A stretch of DNA of 64,000 nt from Candidatus Aminicenantes bacterium (GTDB lineage: Bacteria > Acidobacteriota > Aminicenantia > UBA2199), in the NCBI GenBank assembly GCA_963759765.1, contig CAVXAL010000003.1, positions 871,804 through 935,803 of the forward strand, in the 5' to 3' direction. Shown in pieces: positions 23,256 through 55,800 of this stretch (positions within the stretch are counted from its first letter, which is position 1; each line of letters opens with the position of its first letter). Below the pieces are notes generated by a model, which did not search any database, was not told the DNA's origin, and was given only the letters and a program-made list of their open reading frames with translations. Both the position numbers and the translations under genes were made by a program.

Positions 23256-23277
23256 AAAAGTAGTTTTCTGTTGTTAA

Positions 23278-37177: not shown

Positions 37178-37178
37178 C

Positions 37179-37940: not shown

Positions 37941-38779
37941 TTTTTCTTCCTGCGAAACCGCGAGCGCACCAGAATGGCGGTCAGATTGAGTAACAGCACC
38001 AGCGCCAGCAGCACCAGGGCGGTGCCGTAACGGATGTTCTCGGCAATGCCCGGCACCTGCGTCGAGATGACGTAGAGGTGGTAGGGCAGGGCCATGGTCT
38101 GATCGAAGATCGATTGCGGCAGACGCGGCAGGTAGAAGGCGGCCACGGTGAAAAGAATGGGTGCGGTTTCACCGGCGGCACGGCCCAGGCCCAGAATCGT
38201 TCCGGTCAGAATGCCCGGCAGGGCGTGGGGCAGCACCGAGTGGCGGATGGTCTGCCAACGACTGGCACCCAGGGAAAGGCTGACGGTGCGGAAGGCTTTG
38301 GGCACGCTTTCCAGCGCTTCGCGCGAGGAGGTGATGACCACGGGCAGGATCATGATACCCAGGGTCAGGGAGCCGGAGAGGATGGAGGCCCGGAAACCGA
38401 AAAAGGTGACGAAGATGCCCAAGCCGAAAAGTCCGTAAACCACCGAGGGCACACCGGCCAAATTGACGATGGCCAGCTTGACCAGCCGCGACAGCAGGTT
38501 GTTGCTGGAGTACTCGACCAGGTAGATGGCCGCCATCACTCCCAGGGGGACGGCGAAGAGAATCGCCCCTGTGACCAGGTAGAGGGTGCCGAGAATGGCC
38601 GGCAGGATGCCGCCCGCGGTCATGCCGTTGCGGGGCATGGTGGTGAGGAAAGAGAGGCTGATGGCGCTGCCGCCCTTGAACAGGATGATCAGCAGAATGA
38701 GCACCACCGGCAGCACCACCAGCAGGGTGGCCAGGAACAGCACGGCGAAAGCGATCTTCTGGGTGGTGCGCGAGTTCAT
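37934..38779 (-). CDS. pstA: phosphate ABC transporter permease PstA
   Basis: The 281-aa ORF is a multi-TM protein with the EAA-like loop (SREALESVPKAFRTVSLSLGASRWQTI). Its position follows pstC. Confidence 0.88.
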   Translation of the reverse strand: MNSRTTQKIAFAVLFLATLLVVLPVVLILLIILFKGGSAISLSFLTTMPRNGMTAGGILPAILGTLYLVTGAILFAVPLGVMAAIYLVEYSSNNLLSRLVKLAIVNLAGVPSVVYGLFGLGIFVTFFGFRASILSGSLTLGIMILPVVITSSREALESVPKAFRTVSLSLGASRWQTIRHSVLPHALPGILTGTILGLGRAAGETAPILFTVAAFYLPRLPQSIFDQTMALPYHLYVISTQVPGIAENIRYGTALVLLALVLLLNLTAILVRSRFRRKKKW

Positions 38780-38781
38780 GG

Positions 38782-39660
38782 TCAGCGACGGGAACGGTGC
38801 AGGTAGAGGTCGGCGACGCCGTTGATCAAAAAGGTGATGATGAACAGGACGATGCCGATGGCAAAGAGGGCGGAGTAATGCGCCCCGCCCTGGACCGTTT
38901 CACCCATCTCGGCCGCAATGGTGGCGGTCAGCGTGCGTACCGGTTGCAAGATGCTACGGGGGATGAGGGCGGCGTTGCCGGTCACCATCATTACGGCCAT
39001 GGTTTCGCCGACCACCCGGCCGATGCCCAGCATCACCGCCGCCAGCATGCCCGGCCGGGCGGCGCGGGCCACGATGCGCCAGGTGGTCTGCCACTGGGTG
39101 GCGCCCATGGCAATGGCCGCCTCGCGGTACTGGCGGGGCACGGCGGTGATGGCATCCTCGGCGATGGAAACGATGGTGGGCATGGCCATGAAGGCCAGCG
39201 TGATCGAACCGGTCAGGGCCGTCAGGCCGGTGGGCACCCGGAAAACGGTTTTGATCCAGGGCCCGAGGGTGATCATGCCGATGAAGCCGATCACCACCGA
39301 AGGAATGGCGGCCAGCAGTTCTATGCCTGCTTTCATGATCTCCTTGAGACGGAGCGGAGCGATTTCGGCGATGAACAGGGCGGCAGCGATGCCAATGGGC
39401 ACGGAGATGGCGGCCGCTCCCAGAGTGACCAGCAACGAACCGAGAATCAGGGGCAGGATGCCGAACGCCGGCGGGCTGGAAATGGGATACCAGTTTTTTC
39501 CCAGCAGGAAGTCAAAGATGCCGACCGAACGGAAAAGGGACAACCCTTCGCGCAACAGGAAGAGGAAAATGAGAACAACGAAAAGAATCGCGAAGACCCC
39601 GCTGAAAAGGATGGCTTTTTCGATCAGCCACTCCTTCAGCCTGCGCAGAGTCCGGTGCAT
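38782..39660 (-). CDS. pstC: phosphate ABC transporter permease PstC
   Basis: The 292-aa ORF is a multi-TM protein with the loop AEDAITAVPRQYREAAIAMGATQWQTTW. Its position follows pstS. Confidence 0.88.
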   Translation of the reverse strand: MHRTLRRLKEWLIEKAILFSGVFAILFVVLIFLFLLREGLSLFRSVGIFDFLLGKNWYPISSPPAFGILPLILGSLLVTLGAAAISVPIGIAAALFIAEIAPLRLKEIMKAGIELLAAIPSVVIGFIGMITLGPWIKTVFRVPTGLTALTGSITLAFMAMPTIVSIAEDAITAVPRQYREAAIAMGATQWQTTWRIVARAARPGMLAAVMLGIGRVVGETMAVMMVTGNAALIPRSILQPVRTLTATIAAEMGETVQGGAHYSALFAIGIVLFIITFLINGVADLYLHRSRR

Positions 39661-39672
39661 GCCTGTTTCAGG

Positions 39673-40548
39673 CTACTTCTTGATGGGTACGAAATCGAGC
39701 TTGGATACGATTTGCTGCCCTTCGGCCGAGAGGACGAAATCGATAAACTGGGCGGTCAGCCCCTGGGGCTTCCCCTTGCTGACCATCAGCAGGGGGCGGG
39801 AAATGGGATAGGAATTGTTCACCACATTTTCCTGGGTCGGCTGGATGTAGGGCGCTGTCGCGGTGCGGGCCACGGCCAGCACCTTCTGCTTGGCCGTGAT
39901 GTAGCCCATCCCGTAGTAGCCAATCGCCGAGGAATTCTGCGCGACCTCGTCGGCGATGGACTGGGAACTGGGCAGCAACAGGGCACTGGCGGCGAACTCC
40001 GTTTTGCTCTGGGGATTTCCCCGGCGCAGCACGTGTTCCTTGAAATAGACATGGGTGCCGGAATTGACCTCGCGCGAGAGCACCACGATCGGCAGATCGG
40101 CTCCGCCCACGTCCTTCCAGTTGCCGATGGCACCGGAGAAGATCGCGGCCAGCTGATCCAGGGTCAGCTGCGACACGGGGTTTGCCGGATGGACCACGAC
40201 CGCCAGGCCGTCCAGAGCCACGGTGATCTGCTGGGGATCAATGCCTTTCTGGCGAGCCAGTTGTATCTCGTCCGGTTTGAGTTCCCGCGAGATCTCGGCG
40301 ATGTCGCAGGTGTTTGCGATCAGCGCGGCAATGCCCGTGCCGGAGCCGCCGCCGGTCACGGCCACCGACAGGCCAGGGTTCCGCTTCATGAAAGCCTCGG
40401 CCCAGGCCTGGCCCAGGTTGACCATGGTGTCGGAACCCTTGATCTGCAGGGAATTGGAGCTGCTTTGTTGCCGTCCGCAACTTGCAGACGCTAGTAACAT
40501 AGTCAGCAGTGTCACTGTCAATGCCGTATAAAAAAAACTTTTTTTCAT
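39673..40548 (-). CDS. pstS: phosphate-binding protein PstS
   Basis: The ORF is 291 aa with a lipoprotein-type signal (LLASASCG). Motifs are IKGSDTMVNL, TGGGSGTGIAAL and SREVNSGTH. Confidence 0.9.
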   Translation of the reverse strand: MKKSFFYTALTVTLLTMLLASASCGRQQSSSNSLQIKGSDTMVNLGQAWAEAFMKRNPGLSVAVTGGGSGTGIAALIANTCDIAEISRELKPDEIQLARQKGIDPQQITVALDGLAVVVHPANPVSQLTLDQLAAIFSGAIGNWKDVGGADLPIVVLSREVNSGTHVYFKEHVLRRGNPQSKTEFAASALLLPSSQSIADEVAQNSSAIGYYGMGYITAKQKVLAVARTATAPYIQPTQENVVNNSYPISRPLLMVSKGKPQGLTAQFIDFVLSAEGQQIVSKLDFVPIKK

Positions 40549-40572
40549 GTCTCCTCCGGTTAGTTTCTTTTT

Positions 40573-40622
40573 TATATAAATAGTGTCAGATAAATGTGAA
40601 TTCTGGGTAAAGGAATTGTGAA
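40573..40622 (-). promoter_or_regulatory. candidate Pho-box array plus -10 element upstream of pstS
   Basis: On the minus strand there are four hexamers phased exactly 11 bp apart: TTCACA (40622-40617), TTTACC (40611-40606), TTCACA (40600-40595) and CTGACA (40589-40584). TATATA follows at 40578-40573. This resembles the TT(A/T/C)ACA direct repeats bound by PhoP/PhoB-type regulators. Confidence 0.5.
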
Positions 40623-40666
40623 TTTTTGGTTAATTTTTTTGTTGCACTCAAGGGGTGCTTCCACAA

Positions 40667-41677
40667 TTAGAATTGATAATAGAACGTCATGCTGTAGTAG
40701 GTGTCGCTTTTAGGACCATTTACGCCCGCGGCGTTACGGCCATAGCTAACCAACTTGATGTTGGGCGAGATCTGCACCTTGGGGTGGATGTTCCAGGCCA
40801 GACCGGCGATCAGCATGTCGGTGCGAAAGCCCTTTTCCATGATGACATAAGTGTCCTGGGCCCAGGGGGTCGGGTTGGGGATATGGTCATAACGGGCGAA
40901 GGCTTCCAGCTTCTTGACCAGCTTCAAGGCGCCGAGGACCGAGTAGATGTTGGTGTCGGTGTCGGGCTTGCCGAGTTCGTGGATTCTTTCGAGCATGTAA
41001 TTCACGCCCAGCCGGCCGCTGTCGCTCTTGAAGCCGGCGAAGCCCTGCAGCATGGTCGTGTGCTTGACGTTGCTGATGCCCAGCCAATCGGCGTAAACCT
41101 CAACCAGCCAGTTGGCGGTGGGGGTGTAAGTGAACCGGGCGTAGTAGCCTTTCTGTTTGTTGTTCTCCCATTTGTAGCTGGAGTTGTTGCCGACCATCAC
41201 GGCATAGGAGAACTTTTTGTCCTTGTCGAAGCTGCCGTTCATGGTCAGGCCGAATTCTCTGGAATCGCGCACCTTGAACAGGTCGAGCACCGTCTTTTCC
41301 ACTTGGCGGTAGCCCCAGAATTTTTCGGTGTTGCCGAAGGCCAAAGACTCCTGGATGCCGAGGGTAAACGAATGCAGAGGCAGAAATTGATAGCTGACGT
41401 ACGCGTCCTTGATGAACGCCTTGATGGTGTCGGGTGAGGCGAACTTGCCGTCGCTGTTCATTTCCAGGCGGATGCGGGCTTTGAACTTGTCCGAGATGTC
41501 GCGGTCGTACCAGAGGTAGACGCGCCGCAGCCAGAAGCCAGTCTGGTTGTCGTAACTGGCGTTGTGATTGTTCATGTAATAAAAGTCGCCGAAGGCGTAC
41601 GCCGAAACGGCGGCCGGCAGGCGCGCGCTCCATAGCGCGGTCAACAGAACCAGAGCAAACACGAGTTTTTTAAACAT
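40667..41677 (-). CDS. outer-membrane porin (phosphate-selective porin O/P-like)
   Basis: I prefer the start MFKKLVFALVLLTALWSARLPAAVSA (ATG 41677, GGAGG upstream). The product has alternating beta-strand composition, aromatic girdles and a C-terminal ...FYYQF. The context lies between phoR and pstS. Confidence 0.7.
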   Translation of the reverse strand: MFKKLVFALVLLTALWSARLPAAVSAYAFGDFYYMNNHNASYDNQTGFWLRRVYLWYDRDISDKFKARIRLEMNSDGKFASPDTIKAFIKDAYVSYQFLPLHSFTLGIQESLAFGNTEKFWGYRQVEKTVLDLFKVRDSREFGLTMNGSFDKDKKFSYAVMVGNNSSYKWENNKQKGYYARFTYTPTANWLVEVYADWLGISNVKHTTMLQGFAGFKSDSGRLGVNYMLERIHELGKPDTDTNIYSVLGALKLVKKLEAFARYDHIPNPTPWAQDTYVIMEKGFRTDMLIAGLAWNIHPKVQISPNIKLVSYGRNAAGVNGPKSDTYYSMTFYYQF

Positions 41678-41726
41678 TGAACCTCCTTGGGGTTTAAGTG
41701 TTTGAGCTGACATTCTCGGTTGTGGC

Positions 41727-41765
41727 CGTGAAGCGGGTATAAATAATCCGTTAATTTTCTATGAA
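41727..41765 (-). promoter_or_regulatory. 11-bp phased TTnAnn hexamers upstream of the porin gene (possible Pho boxes or promoter)
   Basis: On the minus strand the hexamers are TTCATA (41765-41760), TTAACG (41754-41749), TTTATA (41743-41738) and TTCACG (41732-41727). They are weaker than the pstS set and could simply be a TTCATA-N16-TTTATA promoter. Confidence 0.35.
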
Positions 41766-41814
41766 TTTTTTAAACGGGCTTTTCAACCTGAAAAAAGACC
41801 TGTTGCCAGCGGAA

Positions 41815-43550
41815 TCAGGCGCTGGGCTGCAAGGGTAGGGTGATGATGAATTCGGTTCCCTGACCGGGCTGGCTGTGGGCCTGGATCTGGCCGTCGTGCA
41901 GCAGCACGGTATGTTTGACAATGGCCAGGCCGAGACCGGTGCCGCCCAATTGCCGGGAGCGCGATTTGTCCACCACGTAAAAGCGTTCAAAGATGCGCGG
42001 CAAATGTTCGGCCGGGATGCCTACGCCGGTGTCGCTGACGCGGATTTCAATCTGCCTCTCTTTCTGCGCCAGGCTGACATTGATCTGGCCGCGGTCGGTG
42101 AATTTGAGGGCGTTGTCCACCAGATTGATGAACAGCTGTTCCAGCTTGAAGGGGTCACCGACAAACGGCGGCAGATCGTTTTCGGCCTTCACCTGCAGGC
42201 GAATATTTTTTTCCTTGGCTTTGGCCGCATAAATTTTTCGGACGTTTTCTGCCAGACTCCGCAAATCCACTTCTTCGTTTTCCCGCTGCAGGTTCGGTTC
42301 TTCGAGTTCAGAAAGGGTCATCAGGTCAGAAACAATGGCGACCAGCCGATCGGTGTGGCGGCGGATGATTTCCAGGTAATTGCGGTTGGCGACCGGGCTC
42401 TCTTCTTCTAGAGTTTCCACGAAGCCCTTGATGGCGGTCAGGGGGGTGCGCAGTTCATGGGAAAGATTGCTGATGAAATCCCGCTTGACCTTTTCCAGCT
42501 TCTTGAATTCGCTGATGTCATGGAAGGTGGCGATCAGGCGTGCGGCGGCGGGCAAATAGCTGATGCGAGCCGACACCATGCGGTCGTTGACGTCCAGTTC
42601 GCCTTGGGTATCTTTTTTTGTTTCCAGGGAACGCCGGACCAGTTCATTGAAGCGGGAATCGCGGAACACTTCCCAATAGAGGCGTCCCTGCCAATCCCGC
42701 TGCCGGCACATGTTTTGGAAGCTCTCATTGGCCAGAGTGATTCGCCCGTCCAGGTCCAAAACCAGCAGCCCCTCGCTGATCGAGGCAATGATGGTTTGCA
42801 ACTCGAGCTGATTGCGCTGCAGCGAGTCGACGAGTTCCTTCTGTTGTTCGACCATGTGGTTGAAACTGCCGGCCAGCTGGTGCAGCTCGTCGCGGCCGTG
42901 CACCCAGGCGCGGGCGTTGAAATCGCCGCCGGCCACCTGCCGGGCCGCCTGGTCCAGCCGCTGAATGGGTCGGTCAGGTTTTTGGAGAAGAAAAATGCAG
43001 CGATCAGCGCCAGCAGGAGCAGAATGGCGATCAGGGTGATGATCTTTCGTTTCATTTCGGCAAGATCCCGGTCGAGCATGCTGACATAGAGGCTCAGCCG
43101 CAGCACGCCAATGACGCGGCCGCCGCTGCGCAGGGGGACAGCCTGGTAGATCATGGCCCGATGCAGGGTGGGGCTGATGCGGGAGAATTCGGCCGGCTTG
43201 CCCTGCAAGGCCAGGATGAATTCCGGCCGGTCGGCGTGATTTTCCATCTGCCGCGGATCGCTGTCCGAATCGGCCAGGACCTTGCCGTCGGGCGCGATGA
43301 CCGTGATGCGCGTGTCCATATCTTTTCCCAGTTCCTTGACCAGGCGGTCCAAGGACCCGCTGTCCGGCGCCAGCAGGAGCGGCATGATGTTCTGACGCAA
43401 GGAAACGGATAGATGGTTAAGGTTCTTGCTGATCGTGTCCCGGTACTGGTCCCTGAAGAAACCCGACGCAAAAAAGAAAATCAGGACAGCCACGACCGCG
43501 GTCATCGCCAAATAACTGAGGAAGGTTTTTCTGAAGATCGATTTTTTCAT
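41815..43550 (-). CDS. phoR: phosphate-regulon sensor histidine kinase (one frame break near ~42960)
   Basis: It has an N-terminal TM and periplasmic-like domain (MKKSIFRKTFLSYLAMTAVVAVLIFFF...), a second TM, HAMP, PAS, the H-box FISNLSHELRTPLTAIKG and an ATPase domain (DNALKFT...DTGVGIP...GGTGLGLAIVKH). The phoB stop overlaps its ATG (ATGA). Confidence 0.85.
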
Positions 43551-44242
43551 GGTTCCAGTTTGTAGCCCACGCCGCGGATGCTCTTGATCAGGGTGCCGGC
43601 CGGCCCCAGTTTCTCGCGCAGGTTCTTGATGTGCACGTCCACGGTGCGGTCGAGTACCGCCTTCTCGTCGCCCCACAGCTTATCCAGCAATTGTTCCCGC
43701 GAGAAAACCCAACCCACGTTCTTGGCCAGGATGACCAGAATGGAAAATTCGGTGGCGGTGAGTTCTTTCTTTTCACCGGCCACAAAAACAGCATGCTGCT
43801 GGCTGTCGATTTCCAGCAGGTCACCGATCCGCTGCCGCGCCGCCGCTTCTTCGGCGCTGCCTTTTTTCCGCCGCAGGATGGCGCGGATACGGGCCACCAG
43901 CTCCTTGGGAGAGAACGGCTTGGCCATGTAGTCGTCGGCGCCGAGCTCCAGGCCCAGCACCACATCGGTTTCCTCGCTGCGGGCGGTCAGCATCAACACG
44001 GGGATGGCCGCCCAGCGTCGGTCTTGTCGCAGTTGTTTGCACACGTCCAGGCCGTCGATGTCGGGCAGCATCAGATCGAGGACGATCAGATCGGGAATTT
44101 TGTTTTCCAGCAGCCGGAGCAGCGGCCGTGCCGCCAGAAACGTTTTGACCCGGAAGCCGGCCTTGGTCAGATGGATATCGATGAGCTGCAGAATGTCGGT
44201 TTCGTCATCGACCGCATAGATCAAAGGCTTCTCGATTGCCAT
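43547..44242 (-). CDS. phoB: OmpR-family response regulator, PhoB-like
   Basis: I prefer the start MAIEKPLIYAVDDETDI (44242). The receiver domain shows DLIVLDLMLPDIDG. The winged-helix domain shows LTATEFSILVILAKNVGWVFSREQLLDKLWG...DRTVDVHIKNLREKL...IKSIRGVGYKL. Confidence 0.88.
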   Translation of the reverse strand: MAIEKPLIYAVDDETDILQLIDIHLTKAGFRVKTFLAARPLLRLLENKIPDLIVLDLMLPDIDGLDVCKQLRQDRRWAAIPVLMLTARSEETDVVLGLELGADDYMAKPFSPKELVARIRAILRRKKGSAEEAAARQRIGDLLEIDSQQHAVFVAGEKKELTATEFSILVILAKNVGWVFSREQLLDKLWGDEKAVLDRTVDVHIKNLREKLGPAGTLIKSIRGVGYKLEP

Positions 44243-44249
44243 TGACCCG

Positions 44250-44278
44250 ATGGTAACAAAGTGGGCGAGTCGAGTCAA
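44250..44278 (-). promoter_or_regulatory. promoter TTGACT-N17-TACCAT with the phoB ATG 7 nt downstream (predicted leaderless)
   Basis: On the minus strand, TTGACT is at 44278-44273 and TACCAT at 44255-44250. Seven nt (CGGGTCA) then precede ATG 44242, and there is no SD. Confidence 0.45.
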
Positions 44279-44365
44279 TCCCAACCACAGGGTGCTTCCG
44301 AAAGGGTTCGACGACCGCGGCGCAGGGTCGAGTGGAAAAAATTTTAAATTTTTGCTTTTCATCTA

Positions 44366-44394
44366 TTGACAGGAAGCGAAAAATATTTTATATT
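44366..44394 (+). promoter_or_regulatory. promoter TTGACA-N17-TATATT with ATG 6 nt downstream (predicted leaderless kamA mRNA)
   Basis: TTGACA is at 44366-44371 and TATATT at 44389-44394. ATG 44401 follows. Confidence 0.5.
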
Positions 44395-44400
44395 CCTCAT

Positions 44401-45735
44401 ATGTTAGGGAGGCGTGAATTGAAAAAGTCGCATCAGGCATTCGTAGTCAAAAAGGAAGCCGAAGTATCAAGTGAGGAGGCCGAGCCTCCAAGCTGTTTGC
44501 GGCAGGATGTCCAGCCTGCCAGCGCCCCCGTCATTCCCTCTCTCCTATTCCCGGAATTAATCCAGTTCCCTGTTCCCAAGGTCGACAAGACCCCGCTCAA
44601 GTTCAGCGCCCGTTCGATTCAGTTTCTGCACCGCTGTTTCCCCATGGCCAGCAAGGCCGAGTGGAGCAGCTGGGAATGGCAGCTGCGCAACAGCTTTACC
44701 TGCATGGAAGATCTGGGCCGGATCATCCGGCTCACGGATGACGAGGCGCAATCCACGGTGCTGGCCAACGGCAATCTGCCACTGCGCATCACGCCGTATT
44801 ACGCCAGTCTGATCGATCCTGACCAGCCGGAGCAGCCGCTCCGCCGCTCGGTGGTGCCGGTGACCGCCGAGCATGTGATCTCGGTGGCCGAGGCCGTGGA
44901 TCCGCTGGGTGAGGATAGCCACAGCCGCGTGGCGGGGCTGGTGCACCGCTATCCGGACCGGGTGCTCTTCCTGGTGACCGGTTTCTGCTCGACCTACTGC
45001 CGCTACTGCACGCGCTCGCGCCTGGTGGGCGACCAGAACAAGCGCCACCTCAACCGCGAGCAGTGGGACCGGGCCATCGCTTACATCGAGGCCCATCCCG
45101 AGGTGCGCGACGTCCTGCTCTCCGGCGGTGATCCGCTTACCCTGCCCGACGAGGGCATCGAGTATCTGCTCACCCGCCTGAGCCGCATCCCCCACGTAGA
45201 GTTCGTCCGCATCGGCACGAAGGTGCCGGTGGTGCTGCCCCAGCGCATCACCACTTCGCTGCTGGCCATTCTCAAGCGCTTCCGGCCGCTCTGGATCAGC
45301 ATCCACTTCACCCATCCGGACGAGGTCACCCTTGAATGCGCCCAAGCCTGCGAGCGGCTGGCCGACGCCGGCATTCCCCTGGGCAGCCAGACCGTGCTGC
45401 TCCGGGGCATCAACGACGACGTGGAGACGATGAAGAAGCTGATGCACGAACTGCTGAAGGTGCGCGTGCGTCCCTACTACCTGTACCAGTGCGACCCGAT
45501 CGTCGGCTCTTCCCATTTCCGCACACCGGTGCAGAAAGGCCTGGACATCATTGCCGGTCTGCGCGGCCACACCTCCGGCTACGCCGTTCCCCACTTCGTC
45601 ATCGACGCGCCGGGCGGTGGAGGCAAAATCCCGTTGCAGCCCGACTACGTCCAGGGTCGGGAAGGCTCCGCACTGCTGCTGAAGAATTACGAGGGCAAGC
45701 TCTTCCGCTATCCCGACGCCGTCTGTCCGCAGTGA
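44401..45735 (+). CDS. kamA: lysine 2,3-aminomutase family radical SAM enzyme
   Basis: Motifs include WSSWEWQLRN, ITPYYASLIDP, HRYPDRVLFLVTGFCSTYCRYCTRSR (CX3CX2C) and SGGDPL. The alternative start ATG 44644 (MASKAEW) would give the canonical N-terminus, so the 81-aa extension is unverified. Confidence 0.85.
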   Translation: MLGRRELKKSHQAFVVKKEAEVSSEEAEPPSCLRQDVQPASAPVIPSLLFPELIQFPVPKVDKTPLKFSARSIQFLHRCFPMASKAEWSSWEWQLRNSFTCMEDLGRIIRLTDDEAQSTVLANGNLPLRITPYYASLIDPDQPEQPLRRSVVPVTAEHVISVAEAVDPLGEDSHSRVAGLVHRYPDRVLFLVTGFCSTYCRYCTRSRLVGDQNKRHLNREQWDRAIAYIEAHPEVRDVLLSGGDPLTLPDEGIEYLLTRLSRIPHVEFVRIGTKVPVVLPQRITTSLLAILKRFRPLWISIHFTHPDEVTLECAQACERLADAGIPLGSQTVLLRGINDDVETMKKLMHELLKVRVRPYYLYQCDPIVGSSHFRTPVQKGLDIIAGLRGHTSGYAVPHFVIDAPGGGGKIPLQPDYVQGREGSALLLKNYEGKLFRYPDAVCPQ

Positions 45736-45780
45736 GCAGCGGCGGCGCGCTTTCTGCGCTCCGACGGTCAGCCCCATCTA

Positions 45781-45809
45781 TTGAATTGCCCGTTGGGCAG
45801 AGATAAAAT
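45781..45809 (+). promoter_or_regulatory. candidate internal promoter (TTGAAT-N17-TAAAAT) with a small palindrome in the spacer
   Basis: TTGAAT is at 45781-45786 and TAAAAT at 45804-45809. The spacer contains TGCCC-GTT-GGGCA. It precedes the first ATP-grasp gene. Confidence 0.4.
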
Positions 45810-45832
45810 ACCCGTGCGAAAAAAGGAACGGC

Positions 45833-46810
45833 ATGCGCGTCGGTTTGACCTATGATCTGAGAAACGATTATCTGGCGGAAGGCTACTGCGAAGAAGAGAC
45901 CGCCGAGTTCGACCGCCCCGATACCATCGAAGCCATCGCCGGGGCGCTGCAGCAGCTCGGCTATGAAACCGAGCGCATCGGCCATGCCCGGCATCTGGTC
46001 GAGCAACTGGCCGCGAGACGGCGCTGGGACATGGTCTTCAACATCTGCGAGGGGCTGCGCGGCATCGGCCGGGAAGCACAGGTGCCCACGCTGCTCGAGG
46101 CCTATGACATCCCGTATACGTTCTCCGATCCGCTGGTGCTGGCCCTGACCCTGCACAAGGGGATGACCAAGAGCGTGGTTCGGGATGCCGGCGTGCCCAC
46201 GCCCGATTTCGTCGAGGTCGAAGAACCAACCGACCTGGAGCGGGTGGATTTGCCGTTTCCCCTTTTCGCCAAGCCTATCGCCGAGGGAACCGGCAAGGGC
46301 ATCAACGCGGATTCGGTCATTCGCAGCCGCCAGGAACTCCGCCAGGTCTGCAGTCGCCTGCTCGCTGCCTTCCACCAGCCGGTGCTGGTCGAACGTTTTC
46401 TGCCGGGGCGGGAATTCACCGTAGGCATTACCGGCAGCGGGAAGGCGGCCGTGGCCGTCGGCGTCATGGAAGTTATCCTCAAGGAAAACGCCGAACCCCA
46501 GGTCTACTCATATACCAACAAGGAATTGTGTGAAGAACGGGTCATCTACCGCCTGGCCGAAGGCGAGGTTGCGGAACGCTGCGCTCAGACAGCCCTGAAC
46601 GCCTGGCGCCGCCTGGGCTGCCGGGATGGCGGCCGGGTCGATATCCGGCTGGATGAGGCCGGGGTGGCCAATTTCCTGGAAGTCAATCCCCTGGCCGGAC
46701 TCCACCCTCAACATTCGGACCTGCCCATCATCTGCACCTTCGTGGGTATTCCCTATGTGGAATTGATTCGCCGGATCATGGACTCAGCCCGGAAGCGGAT
46801 CGGGACATGA
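45833..46810 (+). CDS. ATP-grasp ligase, D-Ala-D-Ala-ligase-like (paralogue 1)
   Basis: The ORF is 325 aa with a Ddl-like layout: MRVGLTYDL...FNICEGLRGIGREAQVPTLLEAYDIPYTFSDP, KSVVRDAGVPTPDF, LFAKPIAEGTGKGI, ERFLPGREFTVGI and GRVDIRLDEAGVANFLEVNPLAGL. Confidence 0.75.
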   Translation: MRVGLTYDLRNDYLAEGYCEEETAEFDRPDTIEAIAGALQQLGYETERIGHARHLVEQLAARRRWDMVFNICEGLRGIGREAQVPTLLEAYDIPYTFSDPLVLALTLHKGMTKSVVRDAGVPTPDFVEVEEPTDLERVDLPFPLFAKPIAEGTGKGINADSVIRSRQELRQVCSRLLAAFHQPVLVERFLPGREFTVGITGSGKAAVAVGVMEVILKENAEPQVYSYTNKELCEERVIYRLAEGEVAERCAQTALNAWRRLGCRDGGRVDIRLDEAGVANFLEVNPLAGLHPQHSDLPIICTFVGIPYVELIRRIMDSARKRIGT

Positions 46811-47781
46811 AACCGGAGCGGGTTGTCATCCTGTTCAACTATGTCGATGAACACTCGCCTCCGGACGAACGGGACGTGTTGATTCAGGTGGAGGCAGTGG
46901 AGCGGGCGCTGCGCGAGCTGGGTTGCAAAACGTTCCGCCTGCCCTTTTCCCTGGACGTGGCTGCGGCCGCGAAAAGACTGCGCCGCCTCAGCCCCGATCT
47001 GGTTTTCAACCTCAGCGAATCGGTTGCCGGCGACGGGCAGCTGATCCAACTGGCTCCTTCGCTCCTCGATCACCTGCGCCTGCCCTACAGCGGCTGCTCC
47101 AAGGAGGCGCTGATGCTCACATCGAACAAGCTCGTGGCCAAGCGGATCCTCAGGCTGGCTGGCATCGCCACTCCCGAATGGCTCTCGCCGGGGGATCCTA
47201 TACCCACCCCTTGGAACGGCAACGAGCGCTTCCTGATCAAATCGGCCTGGGAGCACGCCTCCAACTGGTTGAATGACGAATCGCTGACAACGGCCGCCAG
47301 ACCCGAGGAACTGCTGCAGCGGCTGGAGCGGCGCCGGAGAGAAGCAGGAGGCGATTTTTTCGCCGAGCGTTATATCGACGGCCGCGAGTTCAACCTCTCG
47401 CTGCTGGCGGGCGAGCTGCTGGCAGTACCCGAGATGCGCTTTGTCGATTTTCCGGAAGGCAGGCCCAAGCTGGTCGATTACCGCGCCAAATGGGACGAGG
47501 GTTCGTTTGAATTCCAGCACACCGTCCATTCCTTCGATTTCACCGAGGCCGACCGACCGCTGCTGGAGCGTCTCGAGGAGAGCGCTCGCCGTTGCTGGCA
47601 ATTGTTCGGACTCCGCGGTTACGCCCGGGTCGATTTTCGCGTGGACGGGGAGGGAAAACCGTGGGTGCTGGAGATCAACGCCAATCCCTGCATCTCTCCC
47701 GACAGCGGTTTTGTCGCAACCGCTCTGCGCTCGGGACTGACCTACACCGGCGTGATTGAACGGATCGTGAACGCTGTGTAG
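46807..47781 (+). CDS. ATP-grasp ligase, D-Ala-D-Ala-ligase-like (paralogue 2)
   Basis: The ORF is 324 aa. Motifs are VVILFNYV...VFNLSESVAGDGQLIQLAPSLLDHLRLPYSGCS, KLVAKRILRLAGIATPEW, LIKSAWEHAS, ERYIDGREFNLSLL and ARVDFRVDGEGKPWVLEINANPCISP. It overlaps paralogue 1 by 4 nt. Confidence 0.75.
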   Translation: MKPERVVILFNYVDEHSPPDERDVLIQVEAVERALRELGCKTFRLPFSLDVAAAAKRLRRLSPDLVFNLSESVAGDGQLIQLAPSLLDHLRLPYSGCSKEALMLTSNKLVAKRILRLAGIATPEWLSPGDPIPTPWNGNERFLIKSAWEHASNWLNDESLTTAARPEELLQRLERRRREAGGDFFAERYIDGREFNLSLLAGELLAVPEMRFVDFPEGRPKLVDYRAKWDEGSFEFQHTVHSFDFTEADRPLLERLEESARRCWQLFGLRGYARVDFRVDGEGKPWVLEINANPCISPDSGFVATALRSGLTYTGVIERIVNAV

Positions 47782-47806
47782 CCGCCCGGCGGCAAAGGAG
47801 AGAATC

Positions 47807-48301
47807 ATGAAAACCAAAGAGGCGATCCGTTTCCGCCAGGAAGTCCTTCCCGACGATGTCCGCAACGTGCGTGTCATCGTCGAGTCGAGCGGTTTTTTCC
47901 ACGGCCACGAGATCGAGGTGGCCGTCGAGCTGGTCGAGGAGCGGTTGGCCAAGGGAATCCGCAGCGGCTACCATTTCATTTTCGCCGAGCTTGAAGGCAA
48001 GACCGTGGGCTACACCTGCTACGGCGAGATCGCCGTCACCGAGGGCAGCTACGACCTCTATTGGATCGCGGTCCTGGATGCATTCCGCAGCCGGGGCGTG
48101 GGCGGGAAACTGCTGGTTGAAACCGAACAGGCGATCCGGGCCCTGGGCGGCCGGGCCATCTGGGTCGAGACATCCTCGCGGCCTCTCTACGAGCCGACCC
48201 GGCAGTTCTACCTGCGCCACGGCTACCCGATTGAAGCCGTGCTGAAGGATTTCTACGCGGCGGAAGACGACAAGGTCATATTCGTCAAAAGGCTCCCATG
48301 A
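47807..48301 (+). CDS. GNAT-family N-acetyltransferase
   Basis: The ORF is 164 aa with the acetyl-CoA motif IAVLDAFRSRGVGGKLL. The typical GNAT beta-alpha pattern ends ...FYLRHGY. Confidence 0.8.
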   Translation: MKTKEAIRFRQEVLPDDVRNVRVIVESSGFFHGHEIEVAVELVEERLAKGIRSGYHFIFAELEGKTVGYTCYGEIAVTEGSYDLYWIAVLDAFRSRGVGGKLLVETEQAIRALGGRAIWVETSSRPLYEPTRQFYLRHGYPIEAVLKDFYAAEDDKVIFVKRLP

Positions 48302-48411: not shown

Positions 48412-49200
48412 ATGAGAATTCCGATCTATCAAGTCGATGCCTTTACGGCCGAACCGTTTCGCGGTAACCCGGCCGGTGTCTGCCTGCTGGATGAACCGTT
48501 GCCCGACCGGATATTGCAGCATATCGCCATGGAAATGAACCTCTCCGAGACGGCCTTCCTGCTGCGCCGGACCGACGGTTTCCGGCTGCGCTGGTTCACG
48601 CCGCTGGTCGAGGTGAAACTGTGCGGCCACGCCACCCTGGCCAGCGCCCACCTGTTGTTCGAGCGCGGCTGTATGCGCAAGGACCAGGTCGCCCGCTTCC
48701 ACACCCGCAGCGGCCTGCTGACCGCCCGCTATATTCAGGGCTGGATTGAGCTCGATTTTCCCCAGCTGCCAGCCAGGAAGGTCAAGGCCCCGGCCCTTCT
48801 GCTCGAGGCCCTGAAACTGAAACCTTTGTTTGTCGGCCGCAACGGCATGGACTATCTGGTTGAAGTGAAAGACGAGGCGGAAGTCCGCGGGGCTCGGCCC
48901 GACTTCGACCGACTGGCCAGGTCGGGGGCCCGTGGCGTCATCGTCACCGCCGCGGCAAAGAAAAAATACGATTTCGTTTCCCGCTTCTTTGCGCCGGCGG
49001 TGGGCATCAACGAAGACCCGGTGACCGGTTCAGCCCACTGCTGCCTGGGTCCCTTCTGGGCGGCCAAGCTGAACAAACGGGAGTTGAGCGCCGCCCAGGT
49101 TTCCAGCCGCGGCGGGGTTTTGCAGCTGCGGTTGGAGGGCAAGCGCATCCGCATCCTGGGTCAGGCCGTGACCGTTCTGGCAGGGGAGTTGCAGTTTTAA
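48412..49200 (+). CDS. PhzF-family isomerase
   Basis: The ORF is 262 aa. Motifs are IPIYQVDAFTAEPFRGNPAGVCLL, EMNLSETAFL, RWFTPLVEVKLCGHATLA and DPVTGSAHCCLGPFW. Confidence 0.85.
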   Translation: MRIPIYQVDAFTAEPFRGNPAGVCLLDEPLPDRILQHIAMEMNLSETAFLLRRTDGFRLRWFTPLVEVKLCGHATLASAHLLFERGCMRKDQVARFHTRSGLLTARYIQGWIELDFPQLPARKVKAPALLLEALKLKPLFVGRNGMDYLVEVKDEAEVRGARPDFDRLARSGARGVIVTAAAKKKYDFVSRFFAPAVGINEDPVTGSAHCCLGPFWAAKLNKRELSAAQVSSRGGVLQLRLEGKRIRILGQAVTVLAGELQF

Positions 49201-49241
49201 ACGCATTTGTGGCTTATTAAATAAAATTATGCGTATATAAT

Positions 49242-50870
49242 ATGCCTCTGTTTGATGTGATATTCGTTCTCCCGTATCCCTTCGCCGATCACCCATCTTT
49301 TCCCGAGGGGATTCTCAAGAGAGCCTTGGAAACAGCCGGGTTTTCGGTCGGAGTAATCGAAACTCCTTTCTGGCAGAGCAAAGAAGCGTTCTCCGCTCTG
49401 GGCCGACCGCGGCTCTTTTTTGCCGTCATTTCCGGCCCGGTTGATTCCGTTGTTTTGAATTACACCTCCTTGCGCAAGCGCAGGCGCGAGGATCTCTACC
49501 AGTTCGGCGGCCGGGCGTTCTTTCCCGACCAGCCGGCTTCGATCAAGTACAAGATCCGTCCGGACCGGACATTGATCGTTTTTTCCAACCGGCTGCGCGA
49601 GGCCTTCAGGGATGTGCCCATCGTCATCGGCGGCGTGGAAGGGACGCTGCGCCGCTTCACCCATTTCGATTTTCAGGAGCAGAAAATCCGCCGGTCGATT
49701 CTGCTCGATTCTCGGGCCGATCTGCTGGTCTGCGGCCCGGGCGAAAAGCAGCTCGTGCGCATCGCCCGGATACTGCAAGCGGGGACGCCAATTGAACAAA
49801 TTATTATCCCCGGCACGGCTCGAGCGGTCAGCGATATTCCCGAGCCAGAACAAACAGCGCTGCTTCCAGCCGCTGAAGAGATTCAGAAAGAACCCGCGAA
49901 ATTGCTGGAAGCGGTTCTGGCGCTCGAAAGGCTGGGCGGGATGGGGAAAAAGATTGCCCAGCGCAGCGGCGACCGATTGGTGCTGGAGCAGCCCGCGGAA
50001 ATTTATACCAGCGAGGATCTCGATTTTATCTATGATCTTGATTTCAGCCGTTCGCATCTCCAGGCCCGGGGGTGCTCGCCGGCTTTGCAGATGAACCTCT
50101 TCTCGATCACCGCGCACCGCGGCTGCGGCGGGGCCTGCGCCTTTTGCTCGATCACGCAGCACGAGGGCAGACGGGTGGTCTCCCGCTCGCTGGATTCCGT
50201 GTTACGCGAGGTGCGGGCGCTTTCCCGCCACCCGTTGTGGAAAGGAGTCGTTTCTGACATGGGCGGCGCCAGCGCCGAGATGTACGGCAGCGACTGCCTT
50301 TCCGCTTCCTGCAGCCGCGTCTCCTGCGTGTACCCGGAGTCCTGCGGCCAGTTCCGAGCCGGCGAACCGTATCTGCGGCTGCTGCACGCCAGCCGCAGCC
50401 AACCGGGCGTGAAGAAAGTCTTCATCGGATCGGGTGTGCGCCACGACCTGGTGCTGCAAAACCCCGAGCTGCTCGAGGAGATTCTCCTGCACCATGCCGG
50501 CCGTTTTCTGCGCATCGCGCCCGAACACACCGAGGAGCATGTGCTGCGGCTGATGCGCAAGCCTTCCTTCAAGGTGTTGGAGGAGTTCGTTCGCTTGTTC
50601 CGTCAGATCAACAGCAAAATGCGGCGGCCGGTTGAACTGCTGCCCTACCTGATCATTGGCCATCCCGGTGAAACATTTGCCGATGTCCGGGAAATGAGGA
50701 AGAAACTGAAGGCGCTGGGTCTGAAGACCAGCGGCACCCAGATTTTCACCCCTTCGCCGGGAACGCTCTCCACGGCCATGTTCCATGCCGGGATCTCTCC
50801 GTCCGGAGAGACGCTGGCGGTTGCCCGCGATGTACGCGAACTGCAGCGGCGAAAAGATTATCTGGCCTAA
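49242..50870 (+). CDS. ygiQ: YgiQ-family (UPF0313) radical SAM protein
   Basis: The ORF is 542 aa. The N-terminus reads PYPFADHPSFPEGILKRALETAGFSVGVI. The cluster is ITAHRGCGGACAFCSITQHEG, followed by GGASAEMYG. Confidence 0.8.
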   Translation: MPLFDVIFVLPYPFADHPSFPEGILKRALETAGFSVGVIETPFWQSKEAFSALGRPRLFFAVISGPVDSVVLNYTSLRKRRREDLYQFGGRAFFPDQPASIKYKIRPDRTLIVFSNRLREAFRDVPIVIGGVEGTLRRFTHFDFQEQKIRRSILLDSRADLLVCGPGEKQLVRIARILQAGTPIEQIIIPGTARAVSDIPEPEQTALLPAAEEIQKEPAKLLEAVLALERLGGMGKKIAQRSGDRLVLEQPAEIYTSEDLDFIYDLDFSRSHLQARGCSPALQMNLFSITAHRGCGGACAFCSITQHEGRRVVSRSLDSVLREVRALSRHPLWKGVVSDMGGASAEMYGSDCLSASCSRVSCVYPESCGQFRAGEPYLRLLHASRSQPGVKKVFIGSGVRHDLVLQNPELLEEILLHHAGRFLRIAPEHTEEHVLRLMRKPSFKVLEEFVRLFRQINSKMRRPVELLPYLIIGHPGETFADVREMRKKLKALGLKTSGTQIFTPSPGTLSTAMFHAGISPSGETLAVARDVRELQRRKDYLA

Positions 50871-50884
50871 GTCGTGAATCAAGA

Positions 50885-50913
50885 TTGTAACCGAGCCGGA
50901 AATTTGTTATATT
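50885..50913 (+). promoter_or_regulatory. candidate promoter TTGTAA-N17-TATATT
   Basis: TTGTAA is at 50885-50890 and TATATT at 50908-50913. It is followed by AAGGAG and ATG 50932. Confidence 0.4.
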
Positions 50914-50931
50914 CAAAAGAAAGGAGTAAAG

Positions 50932-51594
50932 ATGAACAAAATAATCACTTTGATTATGTGTTTGGGTCTGCTGGCGCCAACGGTTTCGGCCAAGGGGGAT
51001 GTTCTCAATGGCGAGACCATTCAAAAGCTGAAAGAAAAATACGCCGTCAACAAATTTTTCAAGATCAAGATGCCCGGGCTTCTTTCCTTTGTTTCTCCAA
51101 AAGGGTCAGTGAAATCCGTGTATTACTCGATGACGGTTGACCTGGATTGCAGGTGGGGAACAAGGAAATGGACGCCTCACCAATGGAAAAACACGGTTTT
51201 TGAAGTGGGCGAAGAGGTCTTTGTCAGCCAAGAGGTTGATGCCAGCGGCAAGAGCGTGGAAATTTTCATCACCTCCACCAAGGCCCATTCAGCAGGCAAG
51301 GCGACTGCTGTTCCCTGCACCACCGCCATGTATTTTGAAGTGGTCCCCACAGACACCTTTGATACCGTGCTGGCGCGGATTTCCAAATTTGTTGATGATC
51401 GCGATGGTGTCGCAGCTGCCGCCAACGCCTCCACCAAGAGCCTGAAAATCGGCATGACGGTCGAAGAAGTCGTTCAAGCGCTCGGCGACCCCAAAATGAA
51501 GGCCGATATGGGCGGCGGTAAAATCGTTTACAAGTATGCCGACATGGTCATCACTTTTCAGGACGGGAAAGTCAGCAATATCGAATTCAAATAA
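50932..51594 (+). CDS. secreted hypothetical protein with a BamE/SmpA-like C-terminal segment
   Basis: The ORF is 220 aa with a signal peptide (MNKIITLIMCLGLLAPTVSA). The C-terminal IGMTVEEVVQALGDPKMK...VYKY...ITFQDGKVSNIEF resembles the SmpA/OmlA fold pattern. This call is weak. Confidence 0.45.
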   Translation: MNKIITLIMCLGLLAPTVSAKGDVLNGETIQKLKEKYAVNKFFKIKMPGLLSFVSPKGSVKSVYYSMTVDLDCRWGTRKWTPHQWKNTVFEVGEEVFVSQEVDASGKSVEIFITSTKAHSAGKATAVPCTTAMYFEVVPTDTFDTVLARISKFVDDRDGVAAAANASTKSLKIGMTVEEVVQALGDPKMKADMGGGKIVYKYADMVITFQDGKVSNIEFK

Positions 51595-51616
51595 ATTAAT
51601 CCAATAGAATAAAAAG

Positions 51617-54046
51617 ATGAGAAGTGGCAGCGGCGTGTGCACGCGCACGCTGGCCGGTCTTTTTTTCGTCACCCTGGCCACTCTGATGTACGAGATCCTG
51701 CTGACCCGCATCTTCAGCGTGACCATGTGGTACCACTTCGCTTTCATGGCTATCTCCATCACCATGTTCGGCATGACGCTGGGGGCGCTGATCGTCTACC
51801 TGGTTCCGGCCTGGTTTTCCCGCGCCAGGATCCACGACCAACTGACCCTGAGCGCCTTGCTGTTTTCGCTTTTCATTGTGATTTCCTGTCTCATCCATCT
51901 GAACGTGCCGTTCAATCCCCGCTGGACGCCGGCAGGAATCGGTTCCATGGCTCTGACCTACGCGGCCATTTCGCTGCCTTTTATCTTCAGCGGCATCGCT
52001 GTTTCCCTGGCCCTGAGCCGTTTCCCTGCCGACGTCGGCCGCCTGTATGCGGCTGATCTGGTCGGCGCGGCTGCCGGGTGCCTGCTGCTGCGCTACATCC
52101 TGGAGATCATGGATGGGCCTGGCGCGGTGCTGGCCGTGGCCGCGCTGGCCGCTCTGGGCGCGTTGTTCTTTGCCGGTCGGGAGGTTGGCGGCAAGGTTCG
52201 CTCACTGGCTTTGACCGCCTGTCTGGCTTTTGTGCTTTTGACCGGTATCAATATATTCCTGTTCCAGCAGCAACACCCCCTGCTGCGGGTCAAATGGGTC
52301 AAGGACAGACCGGAGATGCGGCTGATTTACGAAAAATGGAGTTCGTTCGCCCGGGTGGCCATTCGCCACGATCGCTTGCAGCAGCCGATCGGCTGGGGAA
52401 TGAGCGACATCTGGATTCCCCGGCAGAACGTCGACCAACTTTACATGGACATTGACGCCGCGGCGTCCACGGTGCTCACCTCGTTCAACGGCAACCTGCG
52501 GGAGCGCGAATACCTGAGGTACGACATCACCAACCTGGCTCATTACCTGCGGCCCCGATCCGACGTGCTGGTCATCGGCACCGGAGGCGGCCGCGACATC
52601 CTCTCCGCCCTGGTGTTTGACCAGAAATCGGTCACCGGCATTGAAATCAACGGCGACATCCTGCACGCGGTCAACCGCACTTTTGGTGATTTCACCGGCC
52701 ACCTCGACCGAGATCCGCGGGTGACGTTCATTCGCGACGAGGCGCGTTCCTATGTTTCAAGGCTGAAGACGCGCTTCGACATTATCCAGGTGTCGCTGAT
52801 CGACACCTGGGCCGCGACCGCGGCCGGGGCTTTCGTGCTGGCGGAGAATTCCCTGTACACGCTGGAAGCCTGGGAAAACTTCCTGCGCCATCTCCGCTCC
52901 GACGGCATTCTGACCTTCTCCCGCTGGTACAACGGCGGTCTGCCCGCGGAGATGTATCGGCTGACCTCGCTGGCTGCCGGGGCCTTGCGCCGGCTGGGGA
53001 ACACGGAGCCCGAGCGCCATATCCTCATCGCCCGTCACATGCTGCCCAAATATGACCGGCGCCTGGGAATCGGGACCATGCTGGTCAGCGCGTCGCCCTT
53101 TTCCGACCGGGATATTGACGAATGGCAGCGGGTCTGCGACCGCCTCCATTTTGAGATGGTTCTCAGCCCCCGTTCGGCCGCGGATGCCAATTTCGCGACA
53201 ATAGCCTCGGGCCGGGATTTGCAGGCATTCACCGCTGCCTTTCCCCTCAACATCTCGCCGCCCACAGACGACAACCCCTTCTTTTTCAACATGCTGCGGC
53301 TGCGCGACGCCATCAAGCCGCGGCTCTGGCAAAAGGAACTGGACCTGAGTTTCAACTTGCGGGCAGTGGCCGTTCTGGGCATCCTGCTGACCATCGTGCT
53401 GCTGCTGACGCTCCTGTGCATTGCGGTGCCGCTCGGCTTGACGGTGCGGCGCACGCCGCTGCGGGGGACCTGGCCCGATTTCCTCTATTTCGCCTCCATA
53501 GGCTTCGGCTTCATGCTGGTGGAAATTTCCCAGATGCAGCGCCTGAACGTGTTTCTCGGTCATCCCAACTACGGCCTGTCTGTGGTCCTTTTTTCTTTGT
53601 TGCTGGCCAGCGGTATCGGCAGCTTTCTGACTGCGAAGCTCAAATGGCTGGCCGCCAACACCCGCAACGTCTGGCCGCTGGTGCTGCTGCTGGGTCTGCT
53701 GCTGCTGTTCGGGAAATTGACGCCACTGGTCACTTCGTCACTTGCCGGAGCCTCCACCCCGCTGCGGATCGCTGTGGCTGTGGGCTTGTTGTTCCCCCTG
53801 GGTATTTTCATGGGCATGGCCTTTCCCCTGGGCCTGCGCTGGGTGGCCGACCGGGCGCACGCCTTGACGCCCTGGCTCTGGGGAATCAACGGCGCGACTT
53901 CCGTTTTCGCATCGGTGCTGGCCACTGCCATTGCCCTCAGTTCCGGTATTGCCGCCTCCTTCTGGACCGGTTTTGTATTTTACGGCTTGGCGTTATTGGC
54001 TTATACCTTGAGCCCTTTAACTTCAGCATATGAAAACGTTTTGTAA
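51617..54046 (+). CDS. fused polytopic membrane / spermidine-synthase-like (class I methyltransferase-fold) protein
   Basis: The ORF is 809 aa. About 7 N-terminal TM helices are followed by a soluble domain with VLVIGTGGGRDILSALVF...VTGIEINGDI...DIIQVSLIDTWAATAAGAF, which is an aminopropyltransferase-like fold. About 6 more TM helices follow. Confidence 0.65.
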   Translation: MRSGSGVCTRTLAGLFFVTLATLMYEILLTRIFSVTMWYHFAFMAISITMFGMTLGALIVYLVPAWFSRARIHDQLTLSALLFSLFIVISCLIHLNVPFNPRWTPAGIGSMALTYAAISLPFIFSGIAVSLALSRFPADVGRLYAADLVGAAAGCLLLRYILEIMDGPGAVLAVAALAALGALFFAGREVGGKVRSLALTACLAFVLLTGINIFLFQQQHPLLRVKWVKDRPEMRLIYEKWSSFARVAIRHDRLQQPIGWGMSDIWIPRQNVDQLYMDIDAAASTVLTSFNGNLREREYLRYDITNLAHYLRPRSDVLVIGTGGGRDILSALVFDQKSVTGIEINGDILHAVNRTFGDFTGHLDRDPRVTFIRDEARSYVSRLKTRFDIIQVSLIDTWAATAAGAFVLAENSLYTLEAWENFLRHLRSDGILTFSRWYNGGLPAEMYRLTSLAAGALRRLGNTEPERHILIARHMLPKYDRRLGIGTMLVSASPFSDRDIDEWQRVCDRLHFEMVLSPRSAADANFATIASGRDLQAFTAAFPLNISPPTDDNPFFFNMLRLRDAIKPRLWQKELDLSFNLRAVAVLGILLTIVLLLTLLCIAVPLGLTVRRTPLRGTWPDFLYFASIGFGFMLVEISQMQRLNVFLGHPNYGLSVVLFSLLLASGIGSFLTAKLKWLAANTRNVWPLVLLLGLLLLFGKLTPLVTSSLAGASTPLRIAVAVGLLFPLGIFMGMAFPLGLRWVADRAHALTPWLWGINGATSVFASVLATAIALSSGIAASFWTGFVFYGLALLAYTLSPLTSAYENVL

Positions 54047-55522: not shown

Positions 55523-55747
55523 CTAATATTCTTTAGTACTGTTGAAAAATCGGCTGGAGTGAAAAGCTCACTTGATGAGTAATGCGCAGCAGCTTCAACC
55601 ATGCTTCCACCGCTGGCACAACCTTCCATCTCTTTCCTATCTCCACCCTATAGCTTCTTCTAATGATATTTTCTTAGCATACCCGGGAACAAATTTCAAA
55701 TTTTGATTAGAGTGAACATAGACAAAACGTTCCTCCCAAGGCAGTAC

Positions 55748-55777: not shown

Positions 55778-55800
55778 TTAAGTAGGGGTGGAGATGAAAA

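Follow-up and report, generated by a model that had tools for sequence, protein, structure and literature searches.

What would a bacterium make with a lysine aminomutase, two ATP-grasp ligases and an N-acetyltransferase that are encoded side by side? The question is raised by a 64,000-nucleotide stretch of DNA from a Candidatus Aminicenantes bacterium (contig CAVXAL010000003.1; the whole stretch is hereafter called the window). Its + strand carries at 44.3-48.3 kb four closely packed open reading frames (ORFs), arranged head to tail: a gene of the KamA family of aminomutases (kamA), the genes of two ATP-grasp ligases (AG1 and AG2) and that of an acetyltransferase of the GNAT family. The stop codon of AG1 and the start of AG2 overlap by 4 bp (ATGA), and the GNAT gene begins 25 nt after AG2; the close linkage of kamA with two overlapping ligase genes and a GNAT gene, as described in a first-pass annotation of this DNA, is thus borne out on the + strand. 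Beta-lysine is known in bacteria mainly as a modifier of EF-P, as a building block of antibiotics and as a fermentation intermediate; in its acetylated form it is an archaeal osmolyte. Here we propose, with a probability of about 0.55, that the operon produces a cytoplasmic N-acetylated beta-lysyl peptide or amide whose acetylation is reversible.

The arrangement of the module is far beyond chance; its gene order is found again in most of 80 loci, which represent about ten phyla. A genome scan with a profile of AG1 against one genome per GTDB species returned at least 595 matches; the locus counts given in this study refer to the best 80 of these, in which the neighbours were found by tblastn with the window proteins. 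kamA lies upstream of AG1 on the same strand in 68 of the 80 loci (not more than 300 nt away in 61 of these), AG2 follows immediately downstream of AG1 in 67, and GNAT was found in 54. The complete four-gene set is present in 47 loci, with short gaps or overlaps between the genes; the loci without the full set are mostly on contigs that end early. Median identity to the window proteins amounts to 64% for AG1, 60% for KamA, 52% for GNAT and 46% for AG2. The taxa represented are Thermodesulfobacteriota, Bacteroidota, Planctomycetota, Acidobacteriota including Aminicenantes, Spirochaetota, WOR-3, Krumholzibacteriia, Marinimicrobia, Myxococcota, and Alpha- and Gammaproteobacteria. The nearest relatives of the window cluster are found in metagenome-assembled genomes of Aminicenantes, the closest being locus L061. 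Close homologues of AG1 (64-71% identical) number thousands, and come from genomes labelled Deltaproteobacteria, Nitrospirota, KSB3, Glassbacteria and Bacteroidetes. The first-pass annotation would have abandoned its pathway if the ATP-grasp genes and kamA occurred together only here; this is rejected by the synteny conserved across phyla. It had also been unaware of any characterised pathway with this gene set, and our full-text literature search likewise returned neither such a pathway nor a description of the set; that search did not cover Iyer et al. 2009 on amidoligases with ATP-grasp, which may hold a prior prediction. The neighbours of the 80 loci include no recurrent efp, nor a recurrent gene for an exporter, a carrier protein or another candidate target protein, and tblastn with E. 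coli EF-P gave no match in these loci or in the window.

The window KamA passes the family model TIGR00238 (365.9 bits; cut-off 199.2) and aligns over 363 residues with the lysine 2,3-aminomutase of C. subterminale (PDB 2A5H; E 1.4e-132), residue 101 of the long kamA ORF being paired with residue 7 of 2A5H. In that structure, Asp293 and Asp330 bind the epsilon-ammonium group of lysine, Arg134 binds its carboxylate, Lys337 is the lysine that carries pyridoxal phosphate (PLP), and a Cys triad in a CxxxCxxC motif serves the [4Fe-4S] cluster. All of these residues (Cys125/129/132, Arg134, Asp293, Asp330 and Lys337 in 2A5H numbering) are invariant in 65 of 65 full-length cluster-linked KamA orthologues; judged by Asp293, Asp330 and Arg134, the cluster enzyme would be a lysine 2,3-aminomutase. 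Since the two lysine-binding aspartates are kept, the likely reaction is lysine to beta-lysine, and beta-lysine is a likely intermediate of the pathway, as had been assumed at first pass. The curated models of specific functions are nevertheless all missed. The AblA model TIGR03820, the best-scoring equivalog, gives 475.4 bits (cut-off 525.4), the EpmB model TIGR03821 266.7 bits (369.3), and the models of glutamate and arginine 2,3-aminomutase 412.9 bits (650) and 396.1 bits (600), respectively. Furthermore, ~45 residues at the C-terminus of the clostridial enzyme have no counterpart. Because of these scores, the missing C-terminus and an N-terminal extension that is described below, the cluster-linked KamA proteins constitute, by sequence, a distinct clade of the family.

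AG1 and AG2 are paralogues with about 25% identity, and the only Pfam domain matched by either of them is the C-terminal domain of D-Ala-D-Ala ligases (Ddl; PF07478). Their AlphaFold (AF2) models have a predicted local distance difference test score (pLDDT) of 91 for AG1 and 87 for AG2. The best PDB fold matches of both models are all Ddl, with template modelling (TM) scores of up to about 0.8 (0.76-0.82 for AG1) at 18-27% identity, which places both ligases in the ATP-grasp superfamily and the Ddl fold. Ddl joins two small amino acids. Residues were compared in a family alignment that included E. coli DdlB. Both ligases keep the equivalents of DdlB Lys144, Arg255, Asp257, Glu270, Asn272 and the Ser281 region; because these ATP-grasp catalytic residues are kept, AG1 and AG2 look catalytically competent. 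Tyr216, a specificity residue of Ddl (triad Glu15-Ser150-Tyr216), is replaced by Glu in AG1 and by Trp in AG2; the position of Leu282 is an invariant Asp in AG1, and the substrate loop at the N-terminus differs from that of Ddl and is acid-rich. All Ddl/Van models remain under their cut-offs, the best Ddl model scoring 151.5 bits for AG1 and 97.8 bits for AG2 (cut-off 243). On residues and scores, AG1 and AG2 are Ddl-fold ligases, but not true cell-wall Ddl.

The sole solved relative of the GNAT protein is 2R7H (E 7e-45), an uncharacterised structural-genomics protein from Desulfovibrio with the name 'putative D-alanine N-acetyltransferase'. No AblB model was matched in NCBIfam at E<=1e-3, the only match being a weak one to RimI, and no GNAT/ATP-grasp fusion occurs among the top GNAT homologues. 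Nineteen of the 80 loci contain a fifth gene between AG2 and GNAT, whose product of ~600 residues has a core of the histone-deacetylase family (PF00850); in some loci it is fused to GNAT, giving a protein of ~750 residues. The best solved relatives of this deacetylase are the acetylpolyamine amidohydrolases 6PHR, 3MEN and 3Q9B (E 1e-63 to 1e-68), enzymes that hydrolyse N-acetyl groups of small aminoalkyl compounds. Inspection by eye detects a GNAT-like glycine-rich motif in the N-terminal ~240 residues of many of these proteins, a region for which Pfam has no match. The deacetylase gene is absent from the window, which has the four-gene form of the module. Its frequent presence elsewhere suggests that an aminoalkyl group is reversibly N-acetylated. 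None of five proteins was matched by PADLOC to a known anti-phage defence system.

According to the scheme that we favour, the enzyme of the KamA clade, given its kept catalytic and lysine-binding residues, would convert L-lysine to beta-lysine. Each Ddl-fold ligase would then produce one amide bond by way of a carboxylate activated as acyl phosphate; the partner of beta-lysine could be another amino acid, a second beta-lysine or an amine, and the product a di- or tripeptide, an amide or a short oligomer that contains beta-lysine. GNAT would acetylate a remaining free amine, probably the epsilon-aminoalkyl end, and in about a quarter of the genomes the deacetylase would take this acetyl group off again. 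Acetylation could thus act as a reversible on/off or turnover switch, or as a transient protecting group. The lack of a recurrent exporter suggests that the product stays in the cell. Inside this scheme the product may serve as a compatible solute or as a polyamine-like polycation, the latter being favoured by the deacetylase, or the acetyl group may be a protecting group in a biosynthesis.

Several points weigh against the scheme. No product has been observed. Among 74 loci with enough upstream sequence, eight have no kamA immediately upstream of the ligases, so that the supply of beta-lysine may be unlinked or, in some genomes, dispensable; the neighbours of the kamA-less loci are unrelated genes, with no alternative substrate supplier among them. 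In addition, the unusually high identity of AG1 across phyla (58-67%) would also fit a macromolecular partner, and a docking-like motif on KamA hints at protein-protein interactions.

The cluster shares the logic of each of the nearest known systems, but none of them is matched in its defining features. By analogy, the product could be a compatible solute for osmotic stress, e.g. an N-acetyl-beta-lysyl dipeptide, although we consider this unlikely. It is established that an aminomutase and an acetyltransferase make N-epsilon-acetyl-beta-lysine, and that ATP-grasp and GNAT chemistry builds N-acetylglutaminylglutamine amide (NAGGN); a cytoplasmic product, as suggested by the missing exporter, would suit this role. 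The AblA/AblB route of methanogens, also proposed for Pelobacter (PMC3543383), consists of a radical S-adenosylmethionine (radical-SAM) lysine 2,3-aminomutase and then an acetyltransferase. Here, however, two ATP-grasp ligases lie between both genes, KamA stays under the AblA cut-off and has a conserved N-terminal extension, GNAT belongs to another family of 164 aa that lacks an AblB match, and the operon often includes the deacetylase of acetylpolyamine-amidohydrolase type. NAGGN synthesis, by the bifunctional GNAT/ATP-grasp protein Ngg together with AsnO, similarly combines an ATP-grasp peptide bond with N-acetylation to give a capped small peptide. Its building block is glutamine instead of beta-lysine, whereas the cluster has two separate Ddl-fold ligases, no GNAT/ATP-grasp fusion and no AsnO-like amidotransferase among its recurrent neighbours. 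Moreover, the cluster is common in genomes from freshwater, soil, fens and digesters, and the linked regulators vary (Pho-type in the window, sigma54 enhancer-binding in some lineages), none of them being osmotic. The NAGGN-like osmolyte suggested by the first-pass annotation is therefore not supported: neither the amidotransferase nor the fusion is present, and nothing ties the cluster to salt. A polycation would be a special case of the acetylated beta-lysyl product: an oligo-beta-lysine or a beta-lysyl polyamine surrogate, the charge of which is set by GNAT and deacetylase as in the homeostasis by SpeG and acetylpolyamine amidohydrolase (APAH). Streptothricin offers a precedent, its beta-lysine oligomers being acetylated by GNATs. 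The type of the linked deacetylase, the second GNAT-like region that many deacetylase proteins seem to have, and the extra invariant Asp of AG1 with further acidic residues clustered near the substrate sites all point in this direction, as does the pairing of GNAT with such a deacetylase, sometimes by fusion, in 19 loci. In contrast to known polyamine acetylation, this pair sits inside a beta-lysine/ATP-grasp operon, and the window version is without the deacetylase; iterative ligation has no direct support, and two distinct ligases suggest two different bonds and not a homopolymer. We regard the polycation, like the solute, as a minority prospect.

A third possibility, to which we assign a clearly lower probability, is that the ligases act as ATP-grasp counterparts of EpmA and put beta-lysine on a protein, the appended amine being edited by GNAT and deacetylase. 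ATP-grasp enzymes that modify proteins exist, e.g. RimK and LysX; KamA and EpmB are paralogues, the conservation of AG1 is very strong, and a short linear motif is conserved on KamA. The modification of EF-P by EpmB and EpmA also has in common with the cluster that an aminomutase of the KamA family feeds beta-lysine to an ATP-dependent amide ligation. The EpmB score is too low, however (267 versus 369 bits), ATP-grasp ligases replace the LysRS paralogues, a GNAT and a deacetylase are present, and neither linkage to efp nor any other recurrent target gene was found in the 80 loci or the window. Both ligases are nearest to the small-molecule enzyme Ddl and not to RimK or LysX, and the deacetylase resembles those acting on small acetylpolyamines. 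Besides, the EF-P of Bacteroidota functions unmodified and Planctomycetota use EpmAB (PMC12856214, a 2026 review), which leaves little room for another such system. Protein modification is less likely because of the small-molecule type of the folds and the deacetylase, the missing target and the known biology of EF-P. Pyrrolysine-type assembly is a further parallel, since PylB, a radical-SAM lysine mutase, is followed by the ATP-grasp ligase PylC, which joins the rearranged lysine through an amide bond. The sequence and fold matches listed for the ligases do not include PylC, the cluster has no PylD, and its mutase is predicted to use the PLP-dependent 2,3-aminomutase chemistry. Finally, the genes might lie together by coincidence, as ordinary cell-wall D-Ala-D-Ala ligases next to a kamA for lysine fermentation. 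This would agree with public annotation, which names both ligases 'D-alanine--D-alanine ligase' in the records examined, and with the Ddl/Van ligases they do share the fold (TM 0.76-0.82) and the ATP/Mg catalytic residues. We consider it very improbable nonetheless: identity to Ddl is only 19-27%, the Ddl models score far under their cut-offs (152 and 98 versus 243 bits), the equivalents of Tyr216 (in both ligases) and Leu282 as well as the N-terminal substrate loop are changed, the context is not cell-wall synthesis, synteny with kamA and GNAT is kept across phyla, and the lysine-fermentation genes kamDE, kdd and kce are not linked. The label is hence misleading.

Table 1. Features of the module in the window (positions counted from the first nucleotide of the window).
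Feature	Position	Strand	Basis
Sigma70-like promoter, TTGACA-17-TATATT, 11/12 matches	44366-44394	+	consensus scan only
KamA-family radical-SAM/PLP aminomutase	44401 (ATG) or 44419 (TTG) to 45735	+	TIGR00238, PF04055, PF12544 (LAM_C)
Acidic-EPP[G/S/D] motif in the N-terminal extension of KamA	44482-44493	+	conserved across orthologues
AG1, ATP-grasp ligase 1, Ddl fold	45833-46810	+	PF07478, predicted structure, kept catalytic residues
AG2, ATP-grasp ligase 2, Ddl fold, paralogue of AG1	46807-47781	+	PF07478, predicted structure
Small GNAT N-acetyltransferase, 164 aa, orthologous to PDB 2R7H	47807-48301	+	PF13508, PF00583

The N-terminal extension of KamA depends on the choice of the start codon. 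The longest kamA ORF spans 44332-45735, but its GTG at 44332 is unlikely to be the start. The 3' end of the candidate promoter lies 6 nt before ATG 44401, implying a transcription start near 44401, and a GGGAGG Shine-Dalgarno sequence (44407-44412) precedes the in-frame TTG 44419. Translation would thus begin either almost leaderless at ATG 44401, which falls on the alignment column where the majority of the KamA orthologues begin, or at TTG 44419, which the promoter and GGGAGG make an equally good start. The extension then comprises ~65-71 residues; its existence had been recognised at first pass, albeit with an overestimated length of 81 codons. It is conserved among the cluster-linked orthologues. 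These proteins nearly all have 420-470 residues, with a poorly conserved linker of 60-90 residues before the core. A motif in the extension is conserved across phyla and consists of two or three acidic residues followed by E-P-P-[G/S/D]; its form in the window is SSEEAEPPSC (44471-44500).

The motif is conserved at the level of nucleotides as well, as GAR-CCU-CCN-RGY, with constraint at a synonymous position. Of 57 loci, 46 have CCT as the first Pro codon of the motif, whereas CCT makes up 16% of the remaining Pro codons in these genes. In a control that preserves the phylogeny, CCT is found in 53 of 65 sequences; with a single-codon fraction of 0.82 (next column: 0.69), this position is the top outlier of 112 conserved columns. 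CCT accounts for 8-25% in 20 of 21 other conserved Pro columns; the exception, with 5%, is the second Pro of the motif, directly next to the first. Where Gly follows the two prolines, its codon is GGT in 20 of 22 loci. The synonymous constraint at the first Pro codon is real; candidate causes are a masking of sequences that resemble Shine-Dalgarno sites, a codon-specific effect on a Pro-Pro pause, or a docking motif combined with an RNA signal. The CCUCC of the motif is complementary to GGAGG, i.e. resembles an anti-Shine-Dalgarno sequence, and pairs in the window with upstream Glu codons in a local hairpin. The 5' ~130 nt of the window kamA mRNA are unusually stable (z=-3.6; 0 of 200 shuffles), and the Shine-Dalgarno sequence is paired in the minimum-free-energy structure of 44366-44530. 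Across loci, such folds provide CCUCC with no consistent partner (upstream in 32 loci, downstream in 14, unpaired in 13), and between the leaders of 64 loci and an internal control there is no significant difference (median z -0.49 versus -0.11; Wilcoxon p=0.07). A conserved RNA structure around CCUCC was rejected on these grounds. Rfam contains no riboswitch or other known RNA that matches upstream of kamA; its sole match in the window is a tRNA at 4195-4269.

Some genes near kamA are shared by subsets of the loci. In 12-13 loci, apparently mostly of Thermodesulfobacteriota type (e.g. L023 1018-3038, L008 6563-8510, L049 5955-8013), kamA is preceded by the gene of a sigma54-dependent response regulator, which belongs to the enhancer-binding type, and by a conserved small ORF (82-135 aa). 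The small ORF contains IPVDWD...GNV.AVAI and has no match in Pfam or NCBIfam; about eight loci have TGGCAC-N5-TTGC sites upstream that resemble sigma54 promoters. Five loci encode, ahead of AG1, a Cys-rich protein without a family match that is 175-209 aa long (L027 9394-10023, L029 9451-9996, L060 47-574, L063 7632-8162, L064 9439-10023); it lies between kamA and AG1 in four of them, kamA being off the contig in L060, and may be an Fe-S or Zn accessory of the radical-SAM enzyme.

The genes that flank the module in the window are not conserved with it, except for YgiQ in the closest Aminicenantes locus. Upstream of the module and divergent from it is a Pho-type block on the - strand (36419-44362), which encodes a PhoB-like response regulator, a sensor kinase, a phosphate-selective porin and, besides a PstS-like binding protein, two permeases and two ATPases. 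A PiT phosphate transporter occurs in five other loci, ~0.8-0.9 kb past the last module gene in L001, L009, L015 and L025, and far upstream in L061 (109-873); phosphate genes near the module could be a recurrent association or a coincidence. The sensor kinase gene is broken into two ORFs that overlap and lie in different frames (41815-43676, - strand), one with a Cache domain (42534-43676), the other with HAMP-PAS-HisKA-HATPase (41815-42936; HAMP match from profile position 20); this could point to a pseudogene, a frameshift or an error of sequencing. Downstream of GNAT (48412-54046) follow an isomerase of the PhzF family, a radical-SAM protein of the YgiQ family (TIGR03904, 524 bits), a protein of 220 aa whose BamE-like match is weak, and a membrane protein of 809 aa that contains a domain similar to spermidine synthase. 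Farther away, two proteins with TPR repeats are encoded in a stretch of lower GC content (54179-58274; 44-50%). A low-GC island at 21689-24195 (32.5% versus ~60%) contains an N6/N4 DNA methylase, an EcoO109I-like type II restriction endonuclease and a 305-aa ORF without a Pfam match, and is probably a horizontally acquired restriction-modification system.

Our broader claim, for which we put the odds at slightly less than even, is that these genes constitute a dedicated module of four or five genes for a previously unrecognised, acetylatable beta-lysyl peptide or polycation, spread over at least ten phyla, mostly in anaerobes, and equipped with an aminomutase clade of its own that has an N-terminal docking or regulatory motif. 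If this is true, the module would make a bacterial small molecule of a new class, widespread and reversibly acetylated. As hundreds of species-level genomes carry the module, among them those of Thermodesulfobacteriota, Bacteroidota, Planctomycetota and Acidobacteriota, the metabolite would then be an abundant one in environmentally important anaerobes.

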